A stretch of 64,000 nucleotides of DNA from Candidatus Uhrbacteria bacterium. Its GTDB lineage: Bacteria; Patescibacteriota; Patescibacteriia; UBA9934; GWF2-40-263. The stretch is from positions 180,472 to 244,471 of the forward strand of contig JACRJU010000013.1 of NCBI GenBank assembly GCA_016219925.1, written 5' to 3'. The position numbers were made by a program, and so were the translations under genes. The notes under the pieces are model-generated. The model saw nothing but the letters and a program-made list of their open reading frames with translations. It was not told the DNA's origin and searched no databases. Shown here in pieces: positions 3,757-54,036 of this stretch (positions are counted from its first letter, which is position 1; each line of letters begins with the position of its first letter).

Positions 3757-3795
3757 AAGAAAAACGCCTGCGAGAGTTTCGCACGGCGTTGGTTG
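3757..3795 (-). terminator. Putative intrinsic terminator for the minus-strand island gene
   Basis: On the minus strand an imperfect GC hairpin (aacgccgtgcgaaactctcgcaggcgtt) is followed by TTTTTCTTTT. Confidence 0.45.
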
Positions 3796-3804
3796 AGGTA
3801 GGGG

Positions 3805-4677
3805 CTACCAGTAGCGCCGACGGAACTCCGTCGCGTCATGGTGGTTCAGGCCCGTGTTGAGGTCGGCGATGAGCAGGCCCATCAGCTGACCGAACAGGAC
3901 CATCTGCGGTCCGTTCTGTCCGCTCTTGAAAGCTTTGACCAGATCGATCGCCCGCGCGAGCTTGACGCGCGCGGCTTCCTTGGCGACGACATCGCCGTTG
4001 CGGAATGCGCGGTGTGCCTCGATGATCGCGTCGCGGTTCGACGGCCAGTTCGAGTCATGGTTCACGATCTCGCGCAGGCCGATCGTGATGGGATCCGACG
4101 CCCGAGCAGGGGGGGTCAGTGGCGGTTCGCGTCGATCCTCATCTCGAGGCTTTCCGTCGCGTCGGTCGTCCCGACGCGGTTGCTCGCTCGTGGGCTGGCG
4201 CTGTCCTGATGGAGCCGTTGCTCCTGGCGCGGTGCGCGGAGCTTGTACCACAGGAGCGCGCGGCGCGCTCTGCGAAGGGGGAAGCAGCACGGTACGCGCC
4301 CCGCCTCCGCTTGGAGCCGCAACTGCCGCCGCAACGAGATCGTCGAAGTTCGTCACACTCGCTGCGGGTTCTTCGACCGCTTCGACCGGGAGAGCTTCTA
4401 CGATCACCGGCTTGGCGACGTCGACGGTGACCTTGGCCTCCAGCTTGGCCGCGTAGGCCGCCAAGAGGACTTTGGCTGAACCGTCCGTCAGGCCTTCAGC
4501 GTAGAAGGTGGGCCTGCGAGTGAACTCGCCGACGTTGTCGATGGTGTTAGGGTTCAGACCCCCAGCCTCGTCGTTGGTGGGCTCGGGGCTGTCCCCGAGG
4601 GCTTCGACAGCCTCCTGCGAGGCCGTCGCGTCAGGGTTGGGCCCGAAGAGGGCCTCAAAGGCTTCGTTTCTGGTCAA
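3805..4677 (-). CDS. Hypothetical protein with a low-complexity Ala/Pro/Glu-rich middle and a conserved C-terminal domain (high-GC island 1)
   Basis: GC3-rich coding frame with a diverse amino-acid composition, while the opposite-strand ORFs are Arg/Ser/Ala junk. The likely start is the TTG at 4677, 6 nt after AGGAGG; the ORF tool's longer start at 4728 lies inside the -10 box. Confidence 0.55.
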   Translation of the reverse strand: MTRNEAFEALFGPNPDATASQEAVEALGDSPEPTNDEAGGLNPNTIDNVGEFTRRPTFYAEGLTDGSAKVLLAAYAAKLEAKVTVDVAKPVIVEALPVEAVEEPAASVTNFDDLVAAAVAAPSGGGARTVLLPPSQSAPRAPVVQAPRTAPGATAPSGQRQPTSEQPRRDDRRDGKPRDEDRREPPLTPPARASDPITIGLREIVNHDSNWPSNRDAIIEAHRAFRNGDVVAKEAARVKLARAIDLVKAFKSGQNGPQMVLFGQLMGLLIADLNTGLNHHDATEFRRRYW

Positions 4678-4718
4678 GGGCCACCTCCTGATTAAGGGTT
4701 GTCCAGTCGAAGGAAGCG

Positions 4719-4797
4719 AATTTATCACAAAAACTCTTATTTGTCAATAAAAAATGACAAGCGAAAGCTTGACATTTTTAGGGAAATCAGCTAATAT
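4719..4797. promoter_or_regulatory. Back-to-back divergent sigma70-like promoters of island 1
   Basis: Plus strand: TTGACA (4769-4774), 17 nt, TAATAT (4792-4797). Minus strand: TTGACA (revcomp of 4742-4747), 17 nt, TAAATT (revcomp of 4719-4724). Confidence 0.55.
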
Positions 4798-4905
4798 CGT
4801 CCCTCACGTTCGTGTCGTTTTCAACGATTCGAACATGGGGAAAGTTTCTCAACCCGCCGCTAAGCGCGGCCAAAACGCCGCGTGAGCGGCAAGGAAGGAG
4901 GCCAG

Positions 4906-6537
4906 ATGGCCACGCAGCAGTCCCAGTCCGATACCGGTGCCTTCGGCACCGACGACGTCATCGAGCGCCTGGGCGTTCGCGTGCTCGAAGAGGGCGAGAG
5001 CCCTGCCTCCGGCACGACCGCCTTGGTGCAGTTCCGGGCCGCCCCGACCCTCAAGGCGATCGGGCGCGACCTCGCCCGCGTCGCGGCCACGACCTCCATG
5101 GGCAACCGGGAGGGCGCCCGCCGCCGGTGGCTGGACCGCATGGTCATGGTCTCCGGCCCGGATGGCAAGCCCTCGGACGTCCCGCTCTTTGTGAGCGTGA
5201 CCTTCACGGGCAAGCTCGTGACGGTCAAGGGCGTTCAGGACGTGGGGGTGAGCGCGGAGATGGAGCTCCCCGGCCTCGGCCGCGTGGAGATCCAGCCGCT
5301 CTTCACCGTCGGGATCGAGTACGTCGCCGTCAAGGAAGGCGTGCTCGTGCCCACGCGCTCCTTCACCGGCGCCCTGTTCGCCCCGAAGAGTGGCAAGGGT
5401 CCCGGCAAGTTCGTGCCCATCGACTTGGCCGACCCCCAGCTCATCGCGCGCTGGAACGGCATCGTCGAGCAGGGCAAGGCGCTCAACACCGACCACGGCA
5501 AGTGGCCGACGATCCCGGTCCTCGAGACCAAGATCGGCCGGCCCGGGCAGATGATCATCCCCTTCGCGCCCCGCTACCAGGTCAAGGAGACCTTCAACGA
5601 GCGCGGGCGTGACGGCAAGGAGCGCCAGAAGTCGATCTGGGTCATCGGGACCCGGTTCGGCAAGAAAGTGATCCTGGAAAGCCGGTCGCAGGCCCCGGCG
5701 GTCATCGACGCCAGCTCGGCAAAGCCGTTCGGCGATCTCGAGTTCGTCGTCCGTGAGGGCGAGAACTCCCTGATCGTCGTCCTGCGCGGCCGGCCCGGGC
5801 AGACGCCCCTGCCGGAGTCCATGGCGACCATCGAGCAGGCGAGCGACGGGGTGGACCCGTTCGCCGTCCTCAATCTGGACGTCATGCGCTACGAGCCCGG
5901 CCGGGCGCACACCTTCGTGGAGCGGTGCATGCAGCTTCCGCTCAACTCCGCCAATCCGCTCTACAAGAGCGCGATCAACCTCGGGCTCATCGTCGCGGGC
6001 CAGTCCACGGCGGTCGTGAGCAACCAGCTCCAGGCGCTGGCTGACGAGGCCCAGCGCAAGGCCAGGGAGTTCTGGGACGCAGCCATGAAGGCGACGTGGG
6101 AGGCCTTCAGGGTCTACACGTTGCCGGAGATCGGCGACTGCCTGCAGGGCAAGCCCCTGGGGCAGGTCATCGACCGGCTCAACCCTGAGGACGCGGCCGC
6201 GGCGTGGATCACCAGCCACGTCGAGGGCGAGTACTCGCACACGAGCCCGTTTCACCGGGTCCTGCGCGAGCGCGTCCTGCGTGCCGTCGCCCGCAAGGCC
6301 GGCTACCGCGACCCGGCCCCCGAAGGCCCCGCGGCCGACGAGCAGGCCAAGCCCGCCAAGTCCGAGGCCCCGCAGAACAGCGGGACCAACGGCGCGACCA
6401 GCCCCGTCGCCGCGGACACCGCCGAGGCCCCCAAGCCGAAGCGGACCCCGCGCAAGCCGACCAAGGGCGCCAAGCCCAAGGCCGCCGCGCGCAAGACCGC
6501 CAAGCCCAAGGGCTCCCAGCCCGCACTGCGGCAGTGA
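4906..6537 (+). CDS. Hypothetical 543-aa protein with a Lys/Pro/Ala-rich basic C-terminal tail (high-GC island 1)
   Basis: AAGGAGG at 4893-4900 precedes the ATG at 4906 by 5 nt, and the frame is very GC3-rich. The tail (PKPKRTPRKPTKGAKPKAAARKTAKPKG) resembles histone H1 / HU-tail repeats. No family was recognised for the body. Confidence 0.6.
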   Translation: MATQQSQSDTGAFGTDDVIERLGVRVLEEGESPASGTTALVQFRAAPTLKAIGRDLARVAATTSMGNREGARRRWLDRMVMVSGPDGKPSDVPLFVSVTFTGKLVTVKGVQDVGVSAEMELPGLGRVEIQPLFTVGIEYVAVKEGVLVPTRSFTGALFAPKSGKGPGKFVPIDLADPQLIARWNGIVEQGKALNTDHGKWPTIPVLETKIGRPGQMIIPFAPRYQVKETFNERGRDGKERQKSIWVIGTRFGKKVILESRSQAPAVIDASSAKPFGDLEFVVREGENSLIVVLRGRPGQTPLPESMATIEQASDGVDPFAVLNLDVMRYEPGRAHTFVERCMQLPLNSANPLYKSAINLGLIVAGQSTAVVSNQLQALADEAQRKAREFWDAAMKATWEAFRVYTLPEIGDCLQGKPLGQVIDRLNPEDAAAAWITSHVEGEYSHTSPFHRVLRERVLRAVARKAGYRDPAPEGPAADEQAKPAKSEAPQNSGTNGATSPVAADTAEAPKPKRTPRKPTKGAKPKAAARKTAKPKGSQPALRQ

Positions 6538-6600: not shown

Positions 6601-6738
6601 CAGTGGGGGCCCGGCTGGCCATTTCCCCATCCGTGCTCGCAAGCTGCGCGCGGATGGGGACCCCATGGCCGCCTCCCCACTGGCCGTGACAGCTTATCCA
6701 TTCGCAAAGCGACTCTATTGCCCGAGCTTGTCGAGGGC
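6601..6738 (+). repeat. GC-rich extended-hairpin repeat, family 1, copy 1
   Basis: About 90% identical to 13221-13358. It forms nested stems: CCAGTGGGG/CCCCACTGG, GCTGGCCAT/ATGGCCGCC and CCCCATCCG/CGGATGGGG. Confidence 0.8.
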
Positions 6739-6981: not shown

Positions 6982-7016
6982 TTCCGCGCTTGTTGACCGT
7001 TGCGCACAAGACGCTT

Positions 7017-7262
7017 ATGAGCACCGATGCCCCTTATTACCGACTTGCGATGAAGATTTTCGTAGACTTTACCGGAACCATCGCGATCCCGGTGGTTGTC
7101 GCAGCGCTTGCAGGCAAATGGCTTGATGAGCGTTATGGCACATCGCCGTGGTCTCTCATCGGCTTGTTCGCTCTTGCGCTGATTTTTACGGGCATGACGG
7201 TCGTCAAAAAAGCGTATCGGTATCGGAAAGAATTTGAATCCATTTCACACAACGCTAAGTGA
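7017..7262 (+). CDS. Small two-helix membrane protein, possibly an AtpZ/AtpI-like ATP synthase accessory protein
   Basis: An 81-aa hydrophobic protein immediately upstream of atpB, in the usual AtpI/AtpZ position. Confidence 0.4.
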   Translation: MSTDAPYYRLAMKIFVDFTGTIAIPVVVAALAGKWLDERYGTSPWSLIGLFALALIFTGMTVVKKAYRYRKEFESISHNAK

Positions 7263-7266
7263 TTGT

Positions 7267-8115
7267 ATGAGTTTCGCCATTCCTCCCGTTGCGGCTGAAC
7301 CGGTTCTCTCTATCGGAACATTTCCCATCACGAATACCATGGTGAACGCCTGGATCGCGGTTGTTTTTTTCCTGCTCATTTCTCTTGCGGTTCGTTCTCG
7401 AAAAGCGCGCGTTCCAAAAGGGTTGCAAAATATTGTGGAGTCTGTGGTGGAGTTTCTTTTGCGCGAAGTCGAAAAAGTAACAGGGGATAAAAAGAAAGCT
7501 CGGCAGTTTTTGCCGATCGTCGGCACGATCTTTCTTTTCATCCTCTTTTCTAATTGGATCGGATTGTTTCCGGGAACCGGTTCCATTGGAGTCTGGGGGA
7601 TGGTTCATGGGGAAGTGGAATTGATTCCCTTACTTCGTCCAGCCGCCAGCGATCTGAATCTCACCCTTGCGATCGCTTTGTTTGCGATCATCACCTCACA
7701 CGTCATGGCTTTGTTGTCGATCGGACCGTTAAATCACATCAGCAAATTCATCAACATCCGCGGAGTTCTGCGTTCGTTGCGCAACGGACCGATGGCTGTG
7801 ATCGTAGCGATTATCGAATTGGGTGTGGGCTTTATCGAAATCGTTGGTGAGATTGCCAAAGTGGTCTCGCTCTCGCTTCGGTTGTTTGGAAACATTTTTG
7901 CCGGCGAAGTTTTGATGACGGTTATGCTTGGATTGCTCGCCTATGTCGTGCCGATTCCGTTTATGTTTTTGGAGCTTCTGGTCGGAGCGGTTCAAGCAAC
8001 GGTTTTTGCGATGCTGACGCTTGCGTATTTGGTGGTGGCGACGGAAGATCACGGTGGCCACGAAGAAAATACTCACGGTGGCCACGAAGAAGTTCTCGTT
8101 TCAACTCATCCATAA
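7267..8115 (+). CDS. atpB: F0 ATP synthase subunit a
   Basis: Conserved LSLRLFGNIFAGEVL region with the essential Arg. The C-terminus carries a His-rich tandem repeat. Confidence 0.85.
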   Translation: MSFAIPPVAAEPVLSIGTFPITNTMVNAWIAVVFFLLISLAVRSRKARVPKGLQNIVESVVEFLLREVEKVTGDKKKARQFLPIVGTIFLFILFSNWIGLFPGTGSIGVWGMVHGEVELIPLLRPAASDLNLTLAIALFAIITSHVMALLSIGPLNHISKFINIRGVLRSLRNGPMAVIVAIIELGVGFIEIVGEIAKVVSLSLRLFGNIFAGEVLMTVMLGLLAYVVPIPFMFLELLVGAVQATVFAMLTLAYLVVATEDHGGHEENTHGGHEEVLVSTHP

Positions 8116-8355
<240 letters not shown>

Positions 8356-8528
8356 AAGTTAGCCGCAAGTAATAGGTGGCAAGTATCAAGTCGAAAACTG
8401 ACAGACTTCTGCAGAGGTCACTTGATACTTCGGACGTGTTACTCGTTTTGCCTATGTCCTCACCACAACAGACAACAGAACTTGCTCGAGGAGCCGCTCA
8501 AACCGTTGAAGCAACCGGCGGTCTTGGC

Positions 8529-9008
8529 ATGCTCGGCATCAATGCCAAAATTCTTTTGGCTCAATTGGTCAACTTTCTTATTGTGCTTCTGGTTTTGTGG
8601 CGATGGGTATATCGGCCCATGGTGAAATTGCTTGATGAACGCAGTGCGCGCATCGAAGCCAGCATGAAGCATGCCGATGAGATTGATGCGAAAATGGCGG
8701 CGATAGAAAAAGAACAACAGCGATTGGTCGGACAAGCCAAAACAGAAGCCGCGGCCATTTTAGAATCCTCTCGACAAGATGCTGAACGTCGAAAAAAAGA
8801 AATGATTGATGCGGCGAAGCAGGAGGTGCAGAGTGTTGTCGCTCAAGGAAAGGATCAGCTTCAAGCGCAAAAACACCAGATGATTCACGAGGCAAAAGAG
8901 GAGATTGTGGAGATCGCCATTCAGGCGGCCCAGAAAGTTTTACAGGAACAGATTGATGAGAAAATCTCTCATAAACTTTCCGAGCGTGTGATCAAACAAC
9001 TTTCTTAA
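8529..9008 (+). CDS. atpF: F0 ATP synthase subunit b
   Basis: One N-terminal transmembrane helix followed by a long charged coiled coil. The start is set at MLGINAK by analogy with canonical b subunits (the ORF tool starts at 8376). Confidence 0.7.
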   Translation: MLGINAKILLAQLVNFLIVLLVLWRWVYRPMVKLLDERSARIEASMKHADEIDAKMAAIEKEQQRLVGQAKTEAAAILESSRQDAERRKKEMIDAAKQEVQSVVAQGKDQLQAQKHQMIHEAKEEIVEIAIQAAQKVLQEQIDEKISHKLSERVIKQLS

Positions 9009-9011
9009 GGT

Positions 9012-9395
9012 ATGCGCGATATCCTTATTCAACTCGCCAGCGAGCTTGTGGAACGGCTGGAGAAAAAAACGGCTGATGCCGATCAGGTTGCGGATGCCGT
9101 CATTCGGTTGTTGGCACAGCGTGGTCAGCTCTCCTTGGTTCGCGAACTTCCCGAAGCCATCGAGCGCGTGTGGAAAGAGCGATATGGGGCGGCAACGATT
9201 TCCGTTCAAAGCGCCCATCCGCTCACCGCGGCCCTGCGCAAGCAAATCGAGGCACTTGCTCCGGGGGCGGAACTGCGCGAAACCGTTGATACTAAATTGA
9301 TCGGGGGAATGCGCCTGCGCATTGACGATCGCATCATTGATGGATCTATCGCCGGTCATCTTGATCAACTACGCACGCAGTGGAAAGCGAGCTAA
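9012..9395 (+). CDS. atpH: F1 ATP synthase delta subunit (short, 127 aa)
   Basis: The C-terminal motif [26 protein letters not shown] is diagnostic of delta/OSCP. The N-terminal domain is shortened. Confidence 0.75.
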
Positions 9396-10912
9396 TGTTC
9401 AATCCTATGGCAACAAAAACAGAAATTTTGGACGCTCTCAAAAAATCGCTCGAGCATTTTCACGCGGAAGCAAAGGAAGAGCATGTCGGCACCGTTATCG
9501 CGGTGGGCGATGGCACGGCGCGTATGACCGGGCTTTCCCAAGCACGCGCTTCCGAAATGCTTGAATTTCCCGGAGGCATCTACGGCGTCGCTTTGAACCT
9601 GGAGCAAGACGGGGTTGGCGCCGTTATTTTGGGTGATGCTTCTGCCATCAAAGAAGGCGACACAGTGAAATCAACCGGCCGTATTCTTTCCATTCCCGTT
9701 TCTGATGCGGTGCTCGGTCGTGTGCTTGATCCTTTGGGAAATCCGATTGACGGCAAAGGAAAATTAACGGCAACGAAGTTTTATCCGATTGAAAAAATCG
9801 CGCCGGGCGTGATGACGCGTAAAGGCGTTGGCGTGCCTTTGCAAACAGGAATTAAGGCGATTGATTCGATGATTCCGATCGGCCGCGGCCAGCGCGAGCT
9901 CATCATCGGGGATCGTCAAACCGGTAAGACCGCTATCGCCATTGATACGATCATCAACCAAAAAGGATTGGGGGTGAAATGTATTTATATTGCGGTCGGA
10001 CAAAAAGAATCGAAGATTGCGAAGATCGTCGCGCGCCTCGAGGAGTCCGGTGCTATGGAATACACCACGGTGGTGGTGGCTGGCGCGTCCGATCCAGCTT
10101 CGCTTTCTTACATCGCGCCATTTGCCGGATGCACCATTGGAGAATATTTCATGGAAAAAGGAGAAGATGCACTTGTCATTTACGACGATTTGTCCAAACA
10201 GGCCTGGGCCTACCGCGAAATTTCGCTTTTGCTTCGCCGCCCGCCGGGTCGCGAAGCCTATCCCGGCGATGTGTTTTATCTTCACTCACGATTGCTTGAG
10301 CGCGCGGCTCGTTTGAATGAAGAGAACGGCGGCGGATCGCTCACAGCGCTTCCCATCATTGAAACGCAAGCCGGCGATGTCTCGGCCTACATTCCAACAA
10401 ATGTCATTTCTATTACCGATGGACAGATTTATCTGGAATCCGATTTGTTTTATCGCGGGATTCGTCCGGCGCTCAATGTGGGATTGTCTGTTTCCCGCGT
10501 CGGTTCTTCGGCGCAAACCAAGGCCATGAAAAAAGTGGCGGGAAAATTACGCTTGGATCTCGCGCAATTCCGCGAACTCGAAGCGTTTGCCCAGTTCGCA
10601 ACCGATCTTGATCCTCAAACGCGCGCGCAGATCGAGCGCGGCCGTCGCACCACCGAACTGCTCAAACAGCCTCAATATCAACCGATGCCATTTGAACAAC
10701 AGGTCACGGTGCTGTTTGCGGTAACTCAAGGGTTGATCGATCAGATTCCTGTTGACCAAATGACCGTTTGGGAAAAAGCGTTCCACGCGTATATGCTTTC
10801 TTCAGGGGCTGAAACGCTTAAGAAATTGCGGGAAGAGAAGGAAATCACCGATGAGATTGAGGTCTTGTTGAAAAAGGATATTGCGAATTTTAACGAAACA
10901 TTCACTTCATAA
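9395..10912 (+). CDS. atpA: F1 ATP synthase alpha subunit
   Basis: Walker A GDRQTGKT and strong global similarity to AtpA. TAATG overlaps the atpH stop. Confidence 0.9.
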
Positions 10913-10918
10913 TTTCCT

Positions 10919-13175
<2,257 letters not shown>

Positions 13176-13220
13176 ACCGGTCTATAATAATCATCAAAGC
13201 GGGTCCTGTCGCACGCCGGC

Positions 13221-13358
13221 CAGTGGGGGCCCGGCTGGCCATTTTCCCATCCGTGCTCGCAAGCTGCGCGCGGATGGGTGCCCCATGGCCGCCTCCCCAC
13301 TGGCCGTGACGGCTTATTCATTCGCAATGCGACTTTATTGCCTGAGCCTGTCGAAGGC
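13221..13358 (+). repeat. GC-rich extended-hairpin repeat, family 1, copy 2
   Basis: About 90% identical to 6601-6738, with the same orientation and nested stems. Confidence 0.8.
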
Positions 13359-13470
13359 AATGACGATCCCTCCGACACGGTTTTTGTCAGAACCACTGGT
13401 CTCGCAGTTTCTCCTTTCGTTTCTCTTTATCCCCCGAGCTTGTCGAGGGGGGTGCACGTAGCATCTGAAA

Positions 13471-13541
13471 GCGATTTGTAACCATGTCGGAGGGAACGAC
13501 GGCGATGAGTCCGTCGGCCCGGAGACATGGTTACAAATCGC
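13471..13541 (-). repeat. Structured hairpin repeat, family 2, copy C (inverted orientation)
   Basis: An 18-bp stem (GCGATTTGTAACCATGTC / GACATGGTTACAAATCGC) closes a loop that is the reverse complement of the conserved loop. Confidence 0.8.
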
Positions 13542-13555
13542 TTCCCATTCAACAT

Positions 13556-13993
13556 ATGCCTCTCTCGCTCAAAATTGTGACCCCGGAACGCGTGGTCTTT
13601 GAAGACACGGTTGATTCGGTGACGGCGACGACACAGATGGGTGAAATCACCATTTTGCCGCATCATATTCCCCTTGTTGCGAATCTTCAGGCGGGCGAAC
13701 TTCGGGTTCGATCCAACGGGGACGAGCAATTTTTGGTGGCGTCGACCGGTTTTTTGGAAGTGCGGAGCGGTAATGAAGTGGTGATTTTAGCGGATACCGC
13801 TGAACGGGTGGAAGAATTAGAACTTGAAAAAATCGAAGATGCGCGCGAACGGGCTCGTCAGCTGCTTGAAGAAAAACGTCACATCGATGATGTGGCTTTT
13901 GCCGATGCCGCAGCCGTGTTAGAGCGCGAATTAGCGCGCTATCGCGTGGCCATCAAACGAAAAAAATACCGCGATGTCGGTAAGACAAGCTAA
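13556..13993 (+). CDS. atpC: F1 ATP synthase epsilon subunit
   Basis: MPLSLKIVTPERVVFEDTVD matches the beta-sandwich N-terminal domain plus a helical C-terminus. The ORF-track N-terminal extension runs through the repeat and is rejected. Confidence 0.8.
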   Translation: MPLSLKIVTPERVVFEDTVDSVTATTQMGEITILPHHIPLVANLQAGELRVRSNGDEQFLVASTGFLEVRSGNEVVILADTAERVEELELEKIEDARERARQLLEEKRHIDDVAFADAAAVLERELARYRVAIKRKKYRDVGKTS

Positions 13994-13998: not shown

Positions 13999-14790
13999 AT
14001 GTCTTTTGAAACTATGAGTATGGAGCACGAACACGAAGCTTTTGAAAAAGAAAAATCCTGGAAAGATCAAGACGCCATGATTCAGCAAATTCTGCAAGAG
14101 GGCATGCAGGCATACGTTACCGAATTAGAGGATGCCGAACAGGCTTTTGAAACCAGCGAGCACACCCTCTGTTGTATTGATGAAGGGGTTCCCGCGGGTG
14201 ATATGCGAAGCGCTGGCTCCGGGATCTTACTTGTAGGAGCCGATCGCGCGGCGTTTATCGAAGAACTGAAAAAGGCTGGAGTGAAAGAAGTCACAAGCCA
14301 TGTCGGTTGTGGAGCCGCGGCGCTTTATCGTGAACAAAGGGGACTGACCGATCAGACCGTTGACGACGTGGCAATGGAAGGAGCGCGGCGTATGGCTGAA
14401 GAACTCGGGGTTCCATATAAGGGACACATTAACCAGCTTAGACGTCCCAAAGAATTTCATCATGCCCGTGTCGTGTATGTGGATGGAACAGGTGTCTTCA
14501 ATCCGGACAGCGTTAAAGGTTTGCCACAGGGGTTCGTGGTCAGCGAGGCGTATATGACATCCACGCAGGCCGCTTCAGAGGTTGGTCTTGCGGCGAGCAT
14601 TGCTCTGGGAGATCATGGTTTTGGGAAAAAGTTTACAAATGAGTCGCCGTTGTTGGTCGTTTTGGTTGGGGATGAATTTTCCGATGAACTGGTTGGTGAG
14701 CTTCAAAAAACTTTGCGTGACAAACCGATCAAAATGGAAGTCTGGAAGCGTCCAGTGAAACAAGAAGTTGAACTTCCGAAGGCCGCATAG
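13999..14790 (+). CDS. Hypothetical protein, host-GC paralog of the two island-2 proteins (C-x-D / HxxCGAA motif family)
   Basis: Starts 5 nt after atpC. Carries LCCIDEG, SAGSGILLVGAD and SHVGCGAAALY, which align with the motifs of the 14876-15490 and 15694-16230 products. Confidence 0.55.
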   Translation: MSFETMSMEHEHEAFEKEKSWKDQDAMIQQILQEGMQAYVTELEDAEQAFETSEHTLCCIDEGVPAGDMRSAGSGILLVGADRAAFIEELKKAGVKEVTSHVGCGAAALYREQRGLTDQTVDDVAMEGARRMAEELGVPYKGHINQLRRPKEFHHARVVYVDGTGVFNPDSVKGLPQGFVVSEAYMTSTQAASEVGLAASIALGDHGFGKKFTNESPLLVVLVGDEFSDELVGELQKTLRDKPIKMEVWKRPVKQEVELPKAA

Positions 14791-14837: not shown

Positions 14838-14875
14838 TTTACACCGTTCGTTCAACCCACAACCACAGGTGAGCC

Positions 14876-15490
14876 ATGGGACGATTGTCCACGTTTGACA
14901 GGGAAGTGATTGGCATCCTTCGAGAGGAGAACGTCCTGCAAGACGGCGAAGCGCACCTGCTTGAGTCGCCCACGGGTGTGATCGTGGTGGCCTGTTCGGA
15001 CGGCGACCAGATGCCGGACATCTTCGACCACTATCGGGACCTCGCGCGGGCGGGGGAATGGCCCGTGCGCCCGCACATGCTCTGCCTGCACGGTGGAGCC
15101 ATGCTGATCGCGCCCGACTGCCCGCTCTACCGCGCGTTCCACGTGGACGAACTGCTCCTTCAGCACATCCGCGAGGCCGAGGGACTCGACCTCAAGGGGA
15201 TCGGCACGGTCGTGCTCTACGTGCATGCCCCCTGTGGCGCGGCCGGCTTGGCGAACCTGACGGTCGTCAACCAGCTCGACATGCTCATGCGCGCCAAGGC
15301 TCGCGTCAAGGCGATCGATATGACCAATAGGGTCATCTGTTTCGTCCACGTCGACTACGGCAACGAGGGCAACGGAAGCCATAGACGTCGCACGTACTTC
15401 ATGTCCGCGGCGGGCTGGGCCGAGTTCTGGAACCGTCAGGGCCACGAGTTGTGGGGGCGCTTACTAGGTTTTCCTGTGTCGGCGAGTTGA
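14876..15490 (+). CDS. Hypothetical protein, paralog family member C (high-GC island 2)
   Basis: Motifs VVACSDGD, HGGAMLIAPD and HAPCGAAGL. GC3-rich frame. Confidence 0.6.
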   Translation: MGRLSTFDREVIGILREENVLQDGEAHLLESPTGVIVVACSDGDQMPDIFDHYRDLARAGEWPVRPHMLCLHGGAMLIAPDCPLYRAFHVDELLLQHIREAEGLDLKGIGTVVLYVHAPCGAAGLANLTVVNQLDMLMRAKARVKAIDMTNRVICFVHVDYGNEGNGSHRRRTYFMSAAGWAEFWNRQGHELWGRLLGFPVSAS

Positions 15491-15531: not shown

Positions 15532-15619
15532 ATATCATCCAGATGTCATCCCAAGCGAGTTTGAAGAGAGCCGAAGGATTTTTCTAAATGGCTGAAAAAG
15601 AGTTATCAGCCCATCGGGA

Positions 15620-15648
15620 TTGACAAGATTGTGTAAAGTGCGTAAACT
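15620..15648 (+). promoter_or_regulatory. Promoter of island-2 gene D
   Basis: TTGACA, 17 nt, TAAACT, then AGGAGG 6 nt before the ATG at 15694. Confidence 0.5.
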
Positions 15649-15693
15649 CGTCGAGAGCTGTGCACCAACCGCACAGTCTAACGGAGGAGAATC

Positions 15694-16230
15694 ATGACCT
15701 TGCAAGATCTCGTGTCTCGTGGTGTGCTCGTGCCTCGGACGGTGCGCGAGAAGAACACCAAGCCGGTCGTCGTCGTCTGCGACAGCGAGACGGTCATCGA
15801 GGGGCTGTGCGACAAGCGCGTTTCTCGGCGCGTGATCGCGAACGTCGCCGGGGTGCTCGTCGGCACCCCCGAGAGCGATCTCCAGTCCGAGATCGGCGTC
15901 GATCCGGACAAGGTTCTGTACGAACCTCTCCAGATTGCCTTCTCCAACGGGCACCGGTACATCCTGCTGGTCGTAAACCCGGACGCGGTCTGGGGGATCA
16001 TGAGTGAGATGACCAACGTCGAGCTCATTGACCACATGATGCAGGTCGCTCGCGAGATCCGGGAGCGGATGCCCCACTTCGAACTCGACTGCGTCGTCGT
16101 CAAGGGAACGAACTACGGGGAGGTCTACACGGTCAACCCCGAGGCTTGGACGCGGTTCTACGCGACGTACGAGACGCGCGTGCTCGGTCGCCAGGATGAC
16201 GGGCTGGAGCTCGTCCCCGCCACCGTCTGA
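15694..16230 (+). CDS. Hypothetical protein, paralog family member D with degenerate His/Cys motif (high-GC island 2)
   Basis: Aligns with gene C (VVVVCDSE, VAGVLVGTPE, YILLVVNPDAVWG, CVVVKGTNYGE) but lacks the HxxC pair. Confidence 0.6.
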   Translation: MTLQDLVSRGVLVPRTVREKNTKPVVVVCDSETVIEGLCDKRVSRRVIANVAGVLVGTPESDLQSEIGVDPDKVLYEPLQIAFSNGHRYILLVVNPDAVWGIMSEMTNVELIDHMMQVAREIRERMPHFELDCVVVKGTNYGEVYTVNPEAWTRFYATYETRVLGRQDDGLELVPATV

Positions 16231-16344
16231 CGCCTCGCGTCTTCACTCATGGCACCTTCGCGACTTCTTCTACTGCACCCGTCGTCCTCCGGGTGCCTTT
16301 TTTATATTTTTTTTAATAGTCTCGCCAGCTAATCATTCATGAAA

Positions 16345-16415
16345 CAGATTTGTAACCATGTCTCTGGGCCAACGGACTCATCGCCGTTGTTCCCTCCGAC
16401 ATGGTTACAAATCTG
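16345..16415 (+). repeat. Structured hairpin repeat, family 2, copy D
   Basis: An 18-bp stem (CAGATTTGTAACCATGTC / GACATGGTTACAAATCTG) closes the conserved loop. It sits between convergent genes. Confidence 0.8.
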
Positions 16416-16437
16416 TTTTATAAAAAAACATCCATTC

Positions 16438-16980
16438 TCACGGATGCAGAATGCGGATGCGCAGACGGATGTGACTGCGCTTGGGGTTGCCGATGTAGAT
16501 CGAGTCGTAGTCCTGGAGCTCGACGTACACGTCACGCATCAGCGGCCGGGCCTTGGGTGCGCCGGTGCGCCGATGATACGTCGTGTGGCGGTCGGACATC
16601 GTACGCAGGCAAGGTTTGTCGTCCCGGCGTTCGATCACGGCCTGGATGCGCGAGAGCGTACGCTCTGCGTTCAGGCCAACCAGGAGCGGGAGCAGATCGA
16701 CTTCTGGCACGATGGGAGGAACGGTGGTGTCGTCCTTGCGACCGATGCGAAGAGGCGGGTCTCCCGCCGATTCCAGATCGAAGGTAAACGAGATCGGCAC
16801 ATCGCCTGCAACCAGCTCTCGATCACCCACCTGTTCAACGATGATCTCCATGGTGGCAACGGGCTGTTGCACAGCGACGATCGCCTTTGGTTGCGACGGG
16901 GGGGACAGGGGACTCCCATCCTGATCGCACACGAGCGTGCCGTTCTTGAAGTGCTTGCCGCATGAGGGGCAGGTGATCAT
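16438..16980 (-). CDS. Zinc-ribbon plus FHA-domain protein (high-GC island 3)
   Basis: N-terminal CPSCGKHF...C ribbon. FHA signatures: IGRKDD, LSRIQAVIERR, the HTTYHRRTG beta-turn and L.DYDSIYIGN. The ATG overlaps the vWA stop (ATGA). Confidence 0.6.
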   Translation of the reverse strand: MITCPSCGKHFKNGTLVCDQDGSPLSPPSQPKAIVAVQQPVATMEIIVEQVGDRELVAGDVPISFTFDLESAGDPPLRIGRKDDTTVPPIVPEVDLLPLLVGLNAERTLSRIQAVIERRDDKPCLRTMSDRHTTYHRRTGAPKARPLMRDVYVELQDYDSIYIGNPKRSHIRLRIRILHP

Positions 16981-18254: not shown

Positions 18255-18342
18255 GGGAACCTCCGTGGAGTGGGTGCACGGACGTTAGGTCATTTTAGCC
18301 TTTTTGTCAACCCGTTGATGAGCCGGTATACTGAACGTCTTG

Positions 18343-21354: not shown

Positions 21355-21669
21355 ATGCTCCAACTTAAAGATCTCCTCACAGGGGCGCTTAAGCGCGCGC
21401 ATGTTTCGACTCAAGTAACGGCCACGCAAATCGTCTCCGTCGCCAATGAGTTTCTTGGAGTCTTGCTTGGCATGGAATCAAAAGAGGCTCGTGTGGTTTC
21501 CTTTCGCAATGGAACACTCACCATTGAGATGCGCCGTTCATCGACAAGTCAATTCCTTAAAGAACACGAGGAGGTCTTGTTAGATGAGTTGCGCCTGCGT
21601 CTACCGTCTCAAAAAATCGCTTCCGTGCGATATCATCTTGTTCACCACTTCCGTCGATCAGAACTGTAG
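21355..21669 (+). CDS. Small hypothetical protein, possibly DUF721/DciA-like
   Basis: A 104-aa protein. The pattern NGTLTIEMRRSSTSQFLKEHEEVLLDEL resembles DUF721. Weak call. Confidence 0.35.
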   Translation: MLQLKDLLTGALKRAHVSTQVTATQIVSVANEFLGVLLGMESKEARVVSFRNGTLTIEMRRSSTSQFLKEHEEVLLDELRLRLPSQKIASVRYHLVHHFRRSEL

Positions 21670-21679
21670 ATTTTCCTTT

Positions 21680-22075
21680 ATGAGTTTTCGTTGGTTCCTT
21701 CTTGTTATGGCTCTGGCCACTTGTGCCGCGTGGATCGGCTGGGTGTTTGTTGTTCATAGTGTTGACCCAACCCATGCCGGGCTTCTGGGATTCCTTCTTT
21801 TTTATCTGACTTTGCTTGTGGCTGTTCTCGGTTCAACCGTTTTTTTCGGGGCGCTTATTCGCGTATGGATGAAACCGCAAGAAATCCCTTATCGGCAAAC
21901 CGTGCGCGCCCTTCGGCAAGGTGTTCTTCTTACTTTTCTTTTTCTTTCCGTTCTTATCTTGATCTCTTTTGAACTATTGAGATGGTGGACAGGGGGGTTG
22001 TTAATTCTGCTCTGTGCCCTCATTGAGCTTCTCTTTTTGACAAAACATGGCCGTAACGGCTCTACACCCTCTTGA
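21680..22075 (+). CDS. Hypothetical membrane protein
   Basis: Four predicted transmembrane segments. Start moved to the ATG at 21680 to avoid an out-of-frame overlap. Confidence 0.4.
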   Translation: MSFRWFLLVMALATCAAWIGWVFVVHSVDPTHAGLLGFLLFYLTLLVAVLGSTVFFGALIRVWMKPQEIPYRQTVRALRQGVLLTFLFLSVLILISFELLRWWTGGLLILLCALIELLFLTKHGRNGSTPS

Positions 22076-46604: not shown

Positions 46605-46609
46605 TCGAT

Positions 46610-50553: not shown

Positions 50554-51596
50554 AGATACGGATCAAGTTTTTTCCATTGATCAACACATGCAAACATATT
50601 TTGGACTCTTGTTTTTGCGTTTTGACCTAGTTGTTGGCGCAACGAGATGTCGGTGGAGAGTTGAAAAATCGCTTGAGAAAGCGCTTGCAAATTTCCCGGC
50701 GCAACAAGCAAACCCGTTTGGCCATGAACAATCGCTTCGTCTACTCCTGAAATGGTGGTGCTGATGGACGGAATGCCAAATTGTGCCGCTTCCAAAAAAA
50801 CAAGACCAAAACCTTCTTTATCAATAGGATCATTGCTCACAGGCATCACAAAGAGATCCGCTTGCGCGTAACAGTCACGCAAAGTGTTTTCATCAACTTC
50901 TCCAAGAAATTCAACCTCGTGCAAATTAAGCTCTCCGGCGGTTTGTTCAAGCATGGTTCGTTCAGGCCCCTTCCCTACGATGACATAGCGAAACGGAGGA
51001 ATTCGTCCTGTCGTTTTGAGAGATTGAAGAGCCATGAGCACCTGTAAATGGCCTTTGCGGGCAACCAACCGTCCCACCGTAAGCAGAGTGAGAGGCTTGT
51101 CGTTTGATGAAACAGAGGGTGAAGTCCTTTGCGGGTTTACACACGGATAGATTGTCAAAAGGCGAGAGAGGCGAAATTGCAGAGCGACTTCCGCGTTCAG
51201 AGCATTTGAGTTGGTGATGACGAGTGCGGCCCGTTTCAAAACGCGCGAGGCTACCCATTGTTTGAGCGGATGTTGCAACGCCAGACGGACATCCATTCCG
51301 TGAACCACAACCAAATAGGGTTTACGCGTGAACCACGAGGCCACCCAAGCAGCTGTGCCAAAAGGAAGGACATGACTCGTGATCACAAGATCGTAGGTCG
51401 CGCGCTCTTTGATGAGAAGACGTACCGCTGTGAGCCAACGAAGCGGACCGTGCGATCGCAGAAGTTGTGTCGGATCACTGACTACGCGAATGCGCTTACC
51501 GAAATACTCCTTCAAGGTTTCCAAATAGCGCGCCACTCCTCCGGTCTGCGGCGGAAATTCTGTGGTGATGAGAAGAAGACGACGACTAGCGGCCAT
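50550..51596 (-). CDS. GT4-family (GT-B) glycosyltransferase
   Basis: The EGFGLVFLEAAQFGIPSI motif (E-x7-E). Confidence 0.75.
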   Translation of the reverse strand: MAASRRLLLITTEFPPQTGGVARYLETLKEYFGKRIRVVSDPTQLLRSHGPLRWLTAVRLLIKERATYDLVITSHVLPFGTAAWVASWFTRKPYLVVVHGMDVRLALQHPLKQWVASRVLKRAALVITNSNALNAEVALQFRLSRLLTIYPCVNPQRTSPSVSSNDKPLTLLTVGRLVARKGHLQVLMALQSLKTTGRIPPFRYVIVGKGPERTMLEQTAGELNLHEVEFLGEVDENTLRDCYAQADLFVMPVSNDPIDKEGFGLVFLEAAQFGIPSISTTISGVDEAIVHGQTGLLVAPGNLQALSQAIFQLSTDISLRQQLGQNAKTRVQNMFACVDQWKKLDPYL

Positions 51597-53025
51597 AGGA
51601 GAAAAGAGATTTGAGTTTTCGCACGTCATTCAAAACCAGCAGTCTGGTGAGGACGAGAGCTATGATATAAACGGCCACACAAACTGGAATGATTGCCATC
51701 CAACCAATTATGGGCATCAACAAACGACCAACCATGACCATAAAGAGTCCGCTGATACCAAATCGTACGGCATCAAATAACGACGGCCCAAAGCGAAAAG
51801 CCGGGATGACTGGTTTGATAAAAAAGAGTCCGCTGATGAACATAAAACTAAAACTCAATAAAGCGGATATTGCGGCGCCCTGAATGCCTATTTTTGGAAC
51901 AAGCACGGCATTCAGCAAGATGTTGATGACCATGGTGAAGCCCATGATGATCGTTTTTGTGGTTTGGCGATTTCCGGCGTTGAGCAGGGAGCCAATGGGA
52001 AAATCAAGAAAGATCGGGATTAAGACGAAAACGAGCAAGGATAACACCGGGCCAGAAGCTCGATAGGCCGATCCAGCGAGAACGACGGCTTGATTTGCAA
52101 TAAGCCACAGTCCCAGAACAAGCGGGGTGCTGATGAGCATCATGTACCACAGAGCTCGGCGCAGGAGATGAGGAACACGGGCGGGATGATGTTCCAGGGC
52201 CGCACTGATGCTTGGGTAGAGGCCGGCGGTAAAGGCAAGCGGCAAAAATTGAAAAGCGTAAGTGAATTTGTAGGCGATGCTGTAAATGCCCACCGCGGTG
52301 GTATCGATGAATTTCGAAATAAACAGAGAGTCAACATAGGAATACACTTTGACGAAAATAGCAGCGAGGGCGAATGGGAGGGCCAGGCTTAACAAGTGTT
52401 TTGCATTTGCAGAGTTCCAATGCGGCTTCAAAATGGACCAGCCAAAACGTGCGATTAGGGCGCGGCTCGACAACGTCACATTTGTCGCACTGCCCAAGAC
52501 AAGAGCAAAAGTCAGCCAGAGAAGGGATGGATGGATGAAAAGGGAAAGGCCGCCAACCATTGCCGTCACTGCCTGCCCCGTAAGCATCCCCGTGGCTTCA
52601 ATCGAAAGATTTTGGTGACCGCGCAAAACTCCATAAAAAAGCAGATGTAGGGAATCCAGAATAAGCGAGAGCCCAGCGACCATGGTGAGCATTACCACTT
52701 CCCTTTCATAATGAAGCAGAAGCGCTGCGGCGATGGCTGATGCGTAGGCAATGATGAAAAGCGGAATTTTTAAACTTAAGGCTCGTGAGAGAAGGCGCGG
52801 TGTTTCTTGTGGGGATTTGGCAATCTCACGAATAACGACTGGAGTCATGCCGAAATCAGCGATGACAGAAAAAATGAGTGCGATGGAAACGGTAAGAAAA
52901 TATTGACCGGTCCGTTCTGGCTGCATGATGCGCGCGACAAACAAAAAATAGACAAAGGCCACCAGCTTTTGTCCGACGGATGCGATAGTCAGGTACAAGG
53001 TATTTTTTGCAAGAAGCCCAGACAC
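51586..53025 (-). CDS. Wzx-like polysaccharide flippase (MOP superfamily)
   Basis: A 479-aa protein with about 14 transmembrane segments and a typical Wzx N-terminus. Confidence 0.7.
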   Translation of the reverse strand: MSGLLAKNTLYLTIASVGQKLVAFVYFLFVARIMQPERTGQYFLTVSIALIFSVIADFGMTPVVIREIAKSPQETPRLLSRALSLKIPLFIIAYASAIAAALLLHYEREVVMLTMVAGLSLILDSLHLLFYGVLRGHQNLSIEATGMLTGQAVTAMVGGLSLFIHPSLLWLTFALVLGSATNVTLSSRALIARFGWSILKPHWNSANAKHLLSLALPFALAAIFVKVYSYVDSLFISKFIDTTAVGIYSIAYKFTYAFQFLPLAFTAGLYPSISAALEHHPARVPHLLRRALWYMMLISTPLVLGLWLIANQAVVLAGSAYRASGPVLSLLVFVLIPIFLDFPIGSLLNAGNRQTTKTIIMGFTMVINILLNAVLVPKIGIQGAAISALLSFSFMFISGLFFIKPVIPAFRFGPSLFDAVRFGISGLFMVMVGRLLMPIIGWMAIIPVCVAVYIIALVLTRLLVLNDVRKLKSLFSYGR

Positions 53026-53115
53026 ACAACGGCAGGATAGCGTAAAAGCGGCACTGTGTAAATAAAAAAGGCGCTTCGTGTGGCGCCGCAGGGAGAGAGC
53101 GTCGGTGTGATGGGC

Positions 53116-53964
53116 TTAGCCCAGGAAGGTGATGCTTGTGAGCGATCCGCGTCGCCCCCGGACGGTCTGGCCGAGCGGATCCAGTCCGATTTGCGTGCGT
53201 CCGATCGTCTCGAGCTCGTAGCCCTCGATTTTCAGATTGATGGCGGCCTGACCTTCGCAGAATGTGGCGCGCCACAGCGATTGCAGAACCCGTAGGAAGT
53301 GCCCTTCGAGCAGGACCCCGACCTCGCGCTGGTTCTCCTGAGCCCAGGTGTCGCGACCGGGAACCACCACCGGCTTGTGAGTGGTCTTGTGGTAGCCAGG
53401 CGGCCACAAAGAGACCTTGCCGACGCGGAGCGGCGACTTGAGCGGCCAGCATTCGGCCGCCACCATCTGGTTGTGGTGGATCGCCGCGTCGCGAGCCCTG
53501 GCGATATGCTCGATCGAGGAGGCATACCACTCGAACCGCTGTTGACCGCGACGGTCGAAAGCGAAACACCCCTGGATGATCGTGCCCGTTGGAGGCTGAA
53601 GCGCGCTGAGGTGGCGATGCCCTTCGCGAAGGGTCGAGACTGCATCGTAGCTTACACCAACGTTCCCGGTGTCGTCGATCGAGCCGCGCGTGCGTCCGAG
53701 CAAACGTTGCAGGAGACTCGGTTCGTACGGGCTGACCGACAGCGCCCAAAAGTAGTGGGTCGCCGTCGGATCTTGACGCACGTCCGTGACTTCGCTTCGG
53801 AATCCGACGACTGCCGGAACCCGGTGGCCGACACCCGGAAGGTTGATCACAGCCACATCGGTCGGGACGTCTTCGAGACGGTATTTGAGCTCTTTGGCGG
53901 CCATGGCGCCGCGCAAAGCGTCAGAGAGCGACACGTGCGAAATGGGGATCATCATTGTAGACAC
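53116..53964 (-). CDS. Hypothetical protein (high-GC island 4)
   Basis: GC3-rich frame with balanced composition. AGGAGGAGG lies 6 nt before the GTG at 53964. The ATG at 53997 is an alternative start but would sit inside the predicted promoter. Confidence 0.5.
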   Translation of the reverse strand: MSTMMIPISHVSLSDALRGAMAAKELKYRLEDVPTDVAVINLPGVGHRVPAVVGFRSEVTDVRQDPTATHYFWALSVSPYEPSLLQRLLGRTRGSIDDTGNVGVSYDAVSTLREGHRHLSALQPPTGTIIQGCFAFDRRGQQRFEWYASSIEHIARARDAAIHHNQMVAAECWPLKSPLRVGKVSLWPPGYHKTTHKPVVVPGRDTWAQENQREVGVLLEGHFLRVLQSLWRATFCEGQAAINLKIEGYELETIGRTQIGLDPLGQTVRGRRGSLTSITFLG

Positions 53965-54009
53965 AGCGTACCTCCTCCTGTTGTTGGGCGTTGGCATTTA
54001 AACATAGAA

Positions 54010-54036
54010 ACAAAAAACAGGCAAAGAGCCTGTTTT
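54010..54036 (-). terminator. Bidirectional intrinsic terminator after rpsI
   Basis: AACAGGC-TCTTT-GCCTGTT flanked by A6 and T6. A weak TTGCCT, 17 nt, TTAAAT promoter overlaps it. Confidence 0.7.

Follow-up and report, generated by a model that had tools for sequence, protein, structure and literature searches.

Are seven unusually GC-rich genes scattered over a contig of Candidatus Uhrbacteria bacterium acquisitions from a foreign donor, or do they belong to the lineage that carries them? The genes (I1a, I1b, I2a, I2b, I3a, I3b and I4) were flagged as open reading frames (ORFs) in a 64,000-nt stretch of this bacterium's DNA, which we refer to as the window, and the original prediction, made from the letters alone, had regarded them as foreign and as the outcome of three independent insertions. 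Atypical GC content and codon usage are a standard cue for transfer or contamination in metagenome-assembled genomes (MAGs), and the amelioration framework of Lawrence and Ochman recognises horizontally acquired genomic islands by their atypical composition. The results presented below make it highly probable that the seven are native, syntenically conserved genes specific to their clade, which combine a maintained GC excess with Shine-Dalgarno (SD) sites. The genes are listed here with their G+C content at third codon positions (GC3) and, where the likely coding sequence (CDS) is shorter than the ORF, with both extents.

3805-4728, minus strand: I1a ORF, 307 aa, GC3 0.74
3805-4677, minus strand: likely CDS of I1a, 290 aa, TTG start, with the start as called in the independent contig L024
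4882/4906-6537, plus strand: I1b ORF, 543 aa from 4906, GC3 0.95
14876-15490, plus strand: I2a, 204 aa, HZA85_03420, GC3 0.82
15694-16230, plus strand: I2b, 178 aa, GC3 0.87
16438-16980, minus strand: I3a, 180 aa, GC3 0.75
16977-18254, minus strand: I3b, 425 aa, GC3 0.77
53116-53997, minus strand: I4 ORF, 293 aa, GC3 0.76
53116-53964, minus strand: likely CDS of I4, 282 aa, GTG start; 278 aa from the ATG at 53952 in an independent assembly

The product of 4906-6537 (543 aa) is identical to the NCBI protein HZA85_03365 from a Candidatus Uhrbacteria MAG, encoded on a contig of 281,942 bp. For the longest-ORF starts of I1b and I4, exact-protein look-ups were empty, and public gene calls start further downstream.

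Seven genes stand apart in composition

Along the window, GC content climbs from a background of about 0.49 to 0.60-0.70 at approximately 3.8-6.6, 14.9-18.3 and 53.1-54.0 kb. The seven ORFs have a GC content of 0.62-0.70 and a GC3 of 0.74-0.95, compared with a GC3 of 0.507 +/- 0.057 for all other window ORFs of at least 70 aa. The 23 ordinary window genes of at least 290 aa average 0.50 (standard deviation 0.05, maximum 0.61), and the distribution is bimodal: outside the seven, no gene of at least 100 aa rises above 0.65. Relative synonymous codon usage (RSCU) correlates at r = 0.55-0.90 between pairs of the seven and at r = 0.09-0.40 between each of them and the background. G/C-ending codons are taken up for every amino acid, as illustrated by the shares of Lys AAG (0.90 vs 0.31 in the background), Phe TTC (0.86 vs 0.27) and Ile ATC (0.93 vs 0.45). 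GC3 and RSCU thus confirmed that the flagged ORFs are GC-rich and GC3-biased, exactly these seven being the outliers. Amino-acid composition was ruled out as the cause of the GC excess, since most of the effect sits in GC3.

The rise in GC belongs to single genes, not to larger blocks, and goes no further than their coding sequences. Spacers inside or beside the GC-rich genes have a GC content of 0.49 vs 0.47 for the other spacers, the spacers measured being short and rich in promoter and terminator signals. GC3 is flat along each of the seven genes, and the flanking genes show no gradient. When the GC-normalised dinucleotide signature was considered, island 1 (I1a and I1b) differed from islands 2/3 (I2a to I3b) by a delta* of 140, and the distances to the host were 139-177. 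Because island 1 is as distant from islands 2/3 as it is from the host, a single donor signature is not supported. The codon usage that the islands had been said to share was confirmed as coherent; the dinucleotide signatures differ and the spacers are ordinary.

Each GC-rich gene also contains a long antisense ORF (4849-6255, 14852-15445 and 15535-16077 on the minus strand; 16339-16965, 17004-18074 and 53299-54054 on the plus strand). Such ORFs are to be expected as a side effect of high GC3, which leaves few stop codons.

The genes occupy conserved slots in related genomes

The window was compared with four Logan contigs of run SRR12113407 (L001, L002, L024 and L025), whose assembly is independent of the deposited MAG contig, and with loci of related genomes (L003-L011, L013 and L014). 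The GC-rich genes are surrounded by ordinary housekeeping genes of the candidate phyla radiation (CPR). Besides tatD, the genes of an F-type ATP synthase operon, mreBCD, PBP2 and a UvrD-type helicase, these include alaS, priA, def and fmt, polysaccharide-synthesis genes and a ribosomal-protein/rpoA cluster. The seven genes fall into three slots, with the following borders.

2788-3750, plus strand: tatD, the left border of slot A, of ordinary composition (GC3 0.52) and without SD; TatD_DNase by Pfam in the L024 call
6990-13993, plus strand: F-type ATP synthase operon (ATPase_gene1, atpB, E, F, H, A, G, D, C), right border of slot A; ordinary composition
13999-14790, plus strand: h263, a conserved 263-aa gene, left border of slot B; GC3 0.47, ordinary composition
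18340-21309, plus strand: helicase of the UvrD/PcrA type that includes a PD-(D/E)XK nuclease domain (domains by Pfam in the L002 call), of ordinary composition; the right border of slot B
51586-53025, minus strand: polysaccharide synthase/flippase-family gene, one border of slot C
54043-54447, minus strand: rpsI (ribosomal protein S9), other border of slot C; GC3 0.46, without SD

Among the Logan contigs, L024 carries tatD-I1a-I1b, L025 carries atpC-h263-I2a-I2b, L002 carries I3a-I3b-helicase and onwards, with the exact I3b protein, and L001 runs from the ribosomal-protein cluster through rpsI and I4 to the polysaccharide synthase and beyond. Of the six outer junctions, five (tatD/I1a, h263/I2a, I3b/helicase and both sides of I4) are spanned in this way, and the sixth, between I1b and the atp operon, is seen in L003, L004, L005 and L008, which come from other samples. 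The Logan contigs end within island spacers, at the repeat copies 6601-6738 and 16336-16424, and such ends at repeated intergenic elements correspond to ordinary assembler behaviour. Matching gene orders recur in more than ten assemblies from different samples and projects. The original prediction had argued against random chimerism, and in this it was right: five junctions were assembled independently and synteny across genomes accounts for the rest.

Slot A, from tatD to the atp operon, holds the I1a/I1b pair in the window, L003/L004, L005, L007 and L008, and tatD adjoins I1a in L007, L008 and L024. The slot is empty in L009. In L010 (2-1321, minus strand; 1471-2268, plus strand) and L011 (381-2042 and 2132-3133, both minus strand), the slot upstream of the atp operon contains divergent I1b-family genes in reversed orientation (hidden Markov model (HMM) E = 7e-35 and 3e-45), and their neighbour in this slot has an I1a-like N-terminus. 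The content of the slot has thus been rearranged there, yet it is still GC-rich.

Slot B, from h263 to the helicase, holds I2a-I2b-I3a-I3b in the window, I2a-I3a-I3b in L009 and I2a alone in L010. More generally, in L008-L011 the interval flanked by the helicase on one side and by h263, or the end of the atp operon, on the other contains I2a, alone or with members of the set I2b, I3a and I3b. Orthologues of h263 lie directly 5' of I2a in L009 and L010, and synteny with the helicase is kept in L006, L009 and L010, the order in L006 being I1a-I1b-I3a-I3b followed by the helicase. Slot C, from rpsI to the polysaccharide synthase, holds I4 in the window and in L013, and in L014 I4 comes directly after rpsI. 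Altogether, these conserved positions span genomes of 38-58% GC.

The GC excess recurs across the clade and appears to be maintained

Among the clade orthologues outside the window, GC3 was above the local mean in 22 of 22 and above the local maximum in 20. The background GC3 of the compared genomes ranges from 0.28 to 0.69, and the excess is always positive and follows each background. At the lower end, I4 has a GC3 of 0.45 on a background of 0.28 (L013), I2a and I3a reach 0.51 and 0.40 on 0.29 (L009), and the I1b-like gene and I2a reach 0.61 and 0.52 on 0.36 (L010). The slot genes of L011 have values of 0.89 and 0.67 on a background of 0.44, I4 of L014 has 0.76 on 0.48, and I1b of L008 has 0.87 on 0.69. 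In all six genomes that hold both genes, the GC3 of I1b is higher than that of the adjacent I1a. Distant I2a homologues in other contexts showed little or no excess (+0.05 in L019, -0.05 in L020 and -0.01 in L023); the GC-raising force is specific to the clade, and belonging to the I2a family is not enough to bring the excess.

We then considered the age of this composition through the four-fold degenerate sites of the I1b orthologues, compared only under identical amino acids. Observed and expected third-base identities of the window copy were 0.48 and 0.45 with L003, 0.32 and 0.36 with L005, and 0.39 and 0.43 with L006. The GC content at these sites (GC4) was 0.68-0.97, and about two-thirds of the differences were swaps between G and C. 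For atpB in the same genome pairs, third-base identity was 0.47 vs 0.26, that is, the synonymous signal was kept. Since it was kept in atpB and lost in I1b, silent sites turn over faster in the GC-rich genes. Because the four-fold sites are saturated yet GC4 is high, the GC-rich state would be an equilibrium that is held and not an import that has still to ameliorate; from the measured saturation we infer a maintaining force that is still acting. Amelioration, in the sense of a composition decaying towards that of the host, was ruled out by the same saturated sites with their high GC4.

All seven genes carry canonical Shine-Dalgarno sites

A canonical SD site was found 3-9 nt 5' of the start in all seven genes. 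Its strength was taken as the energy of the duplex formed with an assumed canonical anti-SD, which may not be the clade's own, and starts were taken from public assemblies.

4684-4689, minus strand: I1a, AGGAGG, 6 nt 5' of the TTG start at 4677; -14.8 kcal/mol
4897-4901, plus strand: I1b, GGAGG (within AAGGAAGGAGG), 4 nt 5' of the ATG at 4906; -11.7 kcal/mol
14867-14872, plus strand: I2a, SD-like AGGTGA, 3 nt 5' of the ATG; -6.8 kcal/mol
15683-15688, plus strand: I2b, GGAGGA; -9.5 kcal/mol
16986-16991, minus strand: I3a, GAGGAG, within the 3' end of I3b; -9.4 kcal/mol
18260-18264, minus strand: I3b, GGAGG; -10.7 kcal/mol
53971-53979, minus strand: I4, AGGAGGAGG, 6 nt 5' of the GTG at 53964; -13.5 kcal/mol for that start

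The median over 18 genes of these families from eight genomes was -9.5 kcal/mol, and 83% of them reached -6 or lower; for the 66 other called genes of the same loci it was -0.9 kcal/mol, and 9% reached that level (Mann-Whitney p = 8e-9). The single clear outlier among the family genes, I1b of L005, is a mis-called start, and AGGAGG stands before the conserved ATG. The I2a orthologues that lack public calls have GGAGG-type sites (-7.8 to -11.9 kcal/mol). A common style of ribosome-binding site had been proposed for the islands; the difference between the medians makes it stronger than stated.

The ribosomal-protein, atp, tatD, helicase, mreB and alaS genes have no SD; among the atp genes this applies to atpB, atpA and atpD of the window and to the called ones of L003 and L005. 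Every GC-rich gene is SD-led and the converse is false. The distant I2a homologues are SD-led even where their GC3 is normal, and in this family the SD appears to be older than the GC enrichment.

Several features of other starts were also observed. Housekeeping starts (54448-54470, 56890-56900 and 57283-57300, as well as those of L013 and L014) have A/T-rich, TAAT- or TTAA-like leaders, a signal that may partly reflect the TAA stops of upstream operon genes. The start of rpoA near 55860 (L001 8588; L014 2173) is preceded by AGGAGG, which is kept in two genomes and not in L013. A 163-aa gene of normal GC located 5' of mreB (21584-22075) has GAGGAGG.

Homologues are confined to the candidate phyla radiation

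The comparison of donor lineages covered I1b, I2a and I4; the superfamily of I3b, a von Willebrand factor A (vWA) protein, is universal. For I1b, four homologues are close (43-51% identity), and an exhaustive profile search gave 62 cluster representatives. The homologues of I2a number 51, while those of I4 are three besides itself (40-44% identical), the single named match being from Uhrbacteria. All organism-named homologues of the three proteins belong to Uhrbacteria, Parcubacteria, Paceibacterota or the 'Patescibacteria group', and collections of 5.8 to 15 billion proteins yielded none from outside the CPR. Searches of IMG/VR, PLSDB plasmids and GenBank phages with the three proteins gave no relatives, and these empty viral, plasmid and phage searches ruled out a reservoir in mobile elements or phages. 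An alignment of I1b against GTDB representative genomes and JGI metagenomes found no relatives either, and a genome scan with a tightened I2a alignment yielded related loci.

As the original prediction had stated, integrase and transposase genes are missing: none was found among the Pfam, PHROG and NCBIfam matches of the window proteins, and the window contains no tRNA. Its central claim fared differently. Conserved slots in more than ten Uhrbacteria-type genomes, homologues restricted to the CPR and synonymous saturation all speak against a foreign origin through three independent insertions, and the donor that it had suggested seeking among high-GC phyla did not emerge from the protein, plasmid, phage or viral collections.

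Repeat families beside the islands belong to the host

Structured repeats next to the islands had been proposed to mediate targeted acquisition. Two families were found. The first is a hairpin element of about 75-90 nt with three intergenic copies (2681-2753, 13468-13543 and 16336-16424). Its core is conserved (CCATGTC..GGGCC..CGG-N8-CCG..CCC..GACATGG), and its outer stems vary yet stay paired. The RNA minimum free energy is -48 to -51 kcal/mol, the folding z-score is -8 to -11 and Rfam gives no match; the element looks like a repetitive extragenic palindrome (REP) or a miniature inverted-repeat transposable element (MITE), or else like a structured RNA. The second is a 138-nt intergenic repeat of 65-67% GC with copies after I1b (6601-6738) and after atpD (13221-13358), which are 93% identical; it is moderately structured (folding z-score -4.3). 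No RNA family, rRNA included, was found by Rfam in the window or in the fetched loci.

Only one of the three hairpin copies and one of the two copies of the 138-nt repeat adjoin a high-GC gene. The families are the host's own, are genome-wide and occur in ordinary spacers too, and the proposed mediation is not supported. Repeats as insertion machinery were rejected, as most copies do not lie beside high-GC genes. Within the atp operon, we also observed that the 3' end of atpB (8049-8091) contains 19 nt (TCACGGTGGCCACGAAGAA) duplicated exactly in tandem with a spacing of 24, which gives a repeated HGGHEE peptide.

The encoded proteins and their modular arrangement

The seven genes form four modules: the divergent pair I1a/I1b, I2a with I2b, the I3a/I3b operon, and I4. 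The operon is indicated by the start of I3a, which overlaps the stop of I3b (ATGA).

I1a, which is oriented divergently to I1b, combines a conserved N-terminal region (EAFxALFG..ASQEA) with Pro/Ala and Arg/Asp stretches of low complexity, and gave no match in Pfam, PHROG, PADLOC or NCBIfam. Together with I4 it remains an orphan protein. The AlphaFold2 model of I1b (pLDDT 86, pTM 0.77) has a core at residues 15-465, which consists of a beta-rich region and a helical domain, followed by a disordered Lys/Pro/Ala-rich C-terminal tail. When this model was compared by Foldseek with PDB and BFVD, no match reached E <= 0.001, and weak OB-fold-type matches, mostly to nucleic-acid binders, recur. The basic tail and these matches provide a lead that I1b may bind nucleic acids. 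The tail (6348-6516) is built from imperfect 15-nt periodic repeats of the CAAGSCCGCCAAGCC type, which give AKPK-like peptides; it is missing in the L006 orthologue and differs in length among the others.

In the alignment of its homologues, I2a shows the invariant residues C40-x-D42-G-D44, R65-x-H67 and H117-x-P-C120-G-A-A, which probably form a Cys/His metal or catalytic site. The AlphaFold2 model of I2a (pLDDT 93) had the beta-carbonic anhydrase 1ekj as its best Foldseek match in PDB (E = 2e-4, TM-score 0.29). I2a shares the CxDx...HxxC spacing of these enzymes and differs from them in lacking the dyad Arg, the position of the Arg in CxDxR being occupied by the invariant Asp44. Given this substitution, the low TM-score and the lack of Pfam and NCBIfam matches, identification as a beta-carbonic anhydrase was rejected. 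Sequence-profile searches of PDB with I1b, I2a and I3a found no match.

I2a and I2b are hardly similar by BLASTP (E = 0.64), and hhalign aligned them over 127 columns with E = 1.2e-4 and a probability of 55%. The I2a HMM matches the I2b orthologue of L008 (4e-4), which stands after I2a. I2b is probably a remote, degenerate paralogue of I2a without the Cys/His motif. The Cys/His paralogues of the original prediction are therefore paralogues by HMM and hhalign at best, one of which has lost the motif. The strings CIDEG and SHVGCGAA in h263 resemble CSDGD and HAPCGAA of I2a; h263 was also considered as an I2a paralogue of normal GC and this was not demonstrated, the profile comparison aligning 14 columns with a probability of 22%.

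I3b contains a vWA domain, as had been proposed (Pfam VWA PF00092, 7.1e-15, 56.1 bits vs a cut-off of 23.8), with a DRSGS sequence of the metal ion-dependent adhesion site (MIDAS) type, DxSxS, at residues 57-61; its C-terminal half is without an assigned domain. I3a starts with a zinc-ribbon-like CxxC...C (Pfam Zn_ribbon_3, E = 0.05). The forkhead-associated (FHA) domain attributed to it was found in two of three orthologues (PF00498, best E = 1.7e-4), while Pfam is silent on the window copy at E <= 10. The window copy has the motif RIGR...SRIQA...IYIG, in which the signature His is replaced by Gln. Sequence comparison thus points to a divergent FHA-like domain in I3a. At the level of domains, the pair, which is kept in L006 and L009, resembles FHA and vWA signalling pairs, with the difference that the slot is without a kinase or phosphatase partner.

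PADLOC gave no match at E <= 0.1 for any of the seven proteins, and PHROGs and NCBIfam gave nothing beyond vWA, so that a known anti-phage defence system was ruled out. Taken together, the class is probably cytoplasmic and comprises a phospho-threonine/vWA scaffold pair, a Cys/His enzyme-like protein and a large basic-tailed protein.

The seven genes had also been suggested to be one accessory system split across loci. Common expression hallmarks and one case of adjacency between modules, the only one found (I1a/I1b directly beside I3a/I3b in L006), agree with a link among them, whereas the modules are gained and lost independently: L009 is without I1a/I1b and I2b, and L010 is without I3a/I3b. 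The conserved pairings are I1a/I1b, I3a/I3b and the I2a/I2b tandem, the last in the window and L008. Co-regulation of the seven is plausible, and an obligate single multi-locus system is not shown.

Possible causes of the GC excess

If the seven genes are native, what keeps them GC-rich? The cause that we favour, tentatively and at slightly less than an even chance, is selection on the mRNA or its translation tied to SD-dependent initiation. We favour selection because the effect is delimited by the CDS, is specific to each gene with a kept rank order, and is always coupled to an SD. The seven would form a vertically inherited expression class, marked by the shift to G/C-ending codons and by strong canonical SD sites, whose mRNAs would be read via SD/anti-SD pairing and not by a default route through A/U-rich leaders. 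The more a gene is used, the more a GC-rich coding sequence would be favoured in it. SD-dependence probably preceded the GC enrichment and made it tolerable, as the I2a family is SD-led in distant CPR members with normal GC3. The foreign look of the genes would then stem from different translation rules and not from their origin.

Several results weigh against this explanation. Classical translational selection for high expression was ruled out, since the ribosomal-protein and atp genes are at background GC3 (0.45-0.56 with rpoA included). G- and C-ending codons are both increased, instead of one optimal codon per family, and the content of the GARP amino acids (Gly, Ala, Arg and Pro) is 0.33 in the seven genes vs 0.26, a shift that would follow more directly from mutational or conversion pressure than from codon selection. 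The distant I2a homologues and rpoA are SD-led at normal GC, which makes the two hallmarks separable and the causal link between SD and GC enrichment a presumed one. Finally, the sign test for the GC3 excess (p = 5e-7) leaves shared ancestry uncorrected, and the orthologues that it counts are not independent.

GC-biased gene conversion (gBGC) is the main rival. It would act at recombination-prone slots that exchange alleles, with the SD being only a precondition for expression, and we regard it as unlikely though far from negligible. The variable module content of the slots, including the I1 pair that moved between slots in L006, fits such exchange, as does the quicker synonymous turnover in I1b than in the adjacent atpB. 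A conversion bias would also best account for the uniform shift over all codon families, the G/C swaps and the drift of amino acids towards GC-rich codons, and the excess is a trait of the clade and not of the I2a family. Recombining bacterial genes do have higher GC3 (PMC4450053). However, the excess ends at the CDS boundaries, and the spacers and adjoining flank ends are not enriched; adjacent I1a and I1b hold different GC3 set-points in each of the six genomes; and a change from 0.5 to 0.95 is far above the bacterial effects reported, for which gene-level R2 is 0.03-0.09.

A transfer, ancient or recurrent, from a donor that is GC-rich and uses SD sites, for instance the host of this episymbiont, whose codons and ribosome-binding sites were kept, is improbable in our view. 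The codon dialect and the strong SDs do match those of a bacterium with high GC and SD use; the slots are variable, and the genes in them are orphans, accessory and fast-evolving; and each family could stem from a single ancient import. Against this stand the purely CPR range of I1b, I2a and I4 in the collections searched, the conserved positions across genomes of different GC with an excess that follows each background, the host-like spacers with host repeat families and the lack of a dinucleotide signature common to island 1 and islands 2/3; at saturated four-fold sites, moreover, an inherited composition would have decayed. A chimera of assembly or binning, in which fragments of a GC-rich organism were spliced into a CPR contig, can practically be dismissed. 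It would account for the sharp composition changes and for the Logan breaks in two island spacers, but these breaks coincide with repeats that also occur in ordinary spacers, the SRR12113407 assembly spans all but one of the outer junctions, and the gene orders recur across assemblies of separate projects.

Relation to known systems

Like classical genomic islands, the seven are accessory, poorly annotated genes with deviant GC and codons that lie between core genes. They differ from such islands in that mobility genes, tRNA targets and direct repeats are lacking and the spacers are host-like. The slots are clade-wide, the homologues clade-restricted, and the deviation towards GC is kept despite saturation, which is the opposite of amelioration.

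A closer parallel for the SD sites exists in Bacteroidia, in which the anti-SD is sequestered, nearly all genes are SD-less with A/U-rich leaders and a tiny set keeps a strong conserved SD, the SD-bearing rpsU being preferred by ribosomes that lack bS21 (PMC7797042, PMC9976891, PMC13000453). Such a division implies an initiation route, or a regulon, of its own for the SD-led set. The A/T-rich, SD-less housekeeping starts of the window recall this non-SD initiation. The SD-led gene there encodes a ribosomal protein, whereas here SD-led genes are CPR orphan accessory genes that also have a GC-rich dialect. The anti-SD motif was found in only 48% of Parcubacteria 16S rRNAs (PMC9297842).

Bacterial gBGC likewise involves a gene-level GC3 enrichment that does not come from optimal codons and includes non-optimal GC-ending ones; the effects reported are small and statistical, while the GC3 shift here is 0.25-0.45, is confined to the CDS and differs between neighbours (PMC4450053). 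Grass genomes contain two GC3 classes of genes, whose cause, gBGC or selection, is debated (PMC2895627, PMC5460877). That eukaryotic case is linked to recombination and concerns genes by the thousand, with gradients from 5' to 3', in contrast to a handful of bacterial genes with flat GC3.

Full-text literature searches found no paper in which Patescibacteria are joined with codon usage and GC3; on classes of GC-rich genes in the CPR, nothing relevant emerged. Compositional outliers are known, and so are gBGC and lineages that are poor in SDs and have rare SD-led genes; we did not find their combination described for a CPR gene class that is conserved in its clade.

Implications

The position of these genes has consequences for how genomes of this group are read. 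Here the compositional cue misleads, and filters that use it to detect horizontal transfer or contamination would probably flag genuine clade-defining genes such as these. The same orthologues, at the same positions in genomes of 38 to 58% GC, also constitute a natural experiment on synonymous-site composition. If gBGC were the cause, they would be the strongest gene-scale bacterial example by far.

A bolder proposal, which we consider rather doubtful, is that each cell of Uhrbacteria, and possibly of other Parcubacteria, has two translation regimes, an SD-independent one for housekeeping and an SD route for GC-rich lineage genes. Structured GC-rich mRNAs would then be unseen by the default route and translated only when the anti-SD is free, for example in a specialised ribosome state like that of the Bacteroidia ribosomes without bS21; the seven dispersed genes would amount to a regulon at the level of translation, with their foreign look as the mark of this insulation. 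Even more speculative is the variant in which the dialect would suit the translation machinery of a host cell that is itself GC-rich.

CPR ribosomes are already known to be unusual. If the GC excess is indeed due to selection tied to SD initiation, these genes would reveal a second translation regime in CPR bacteria.

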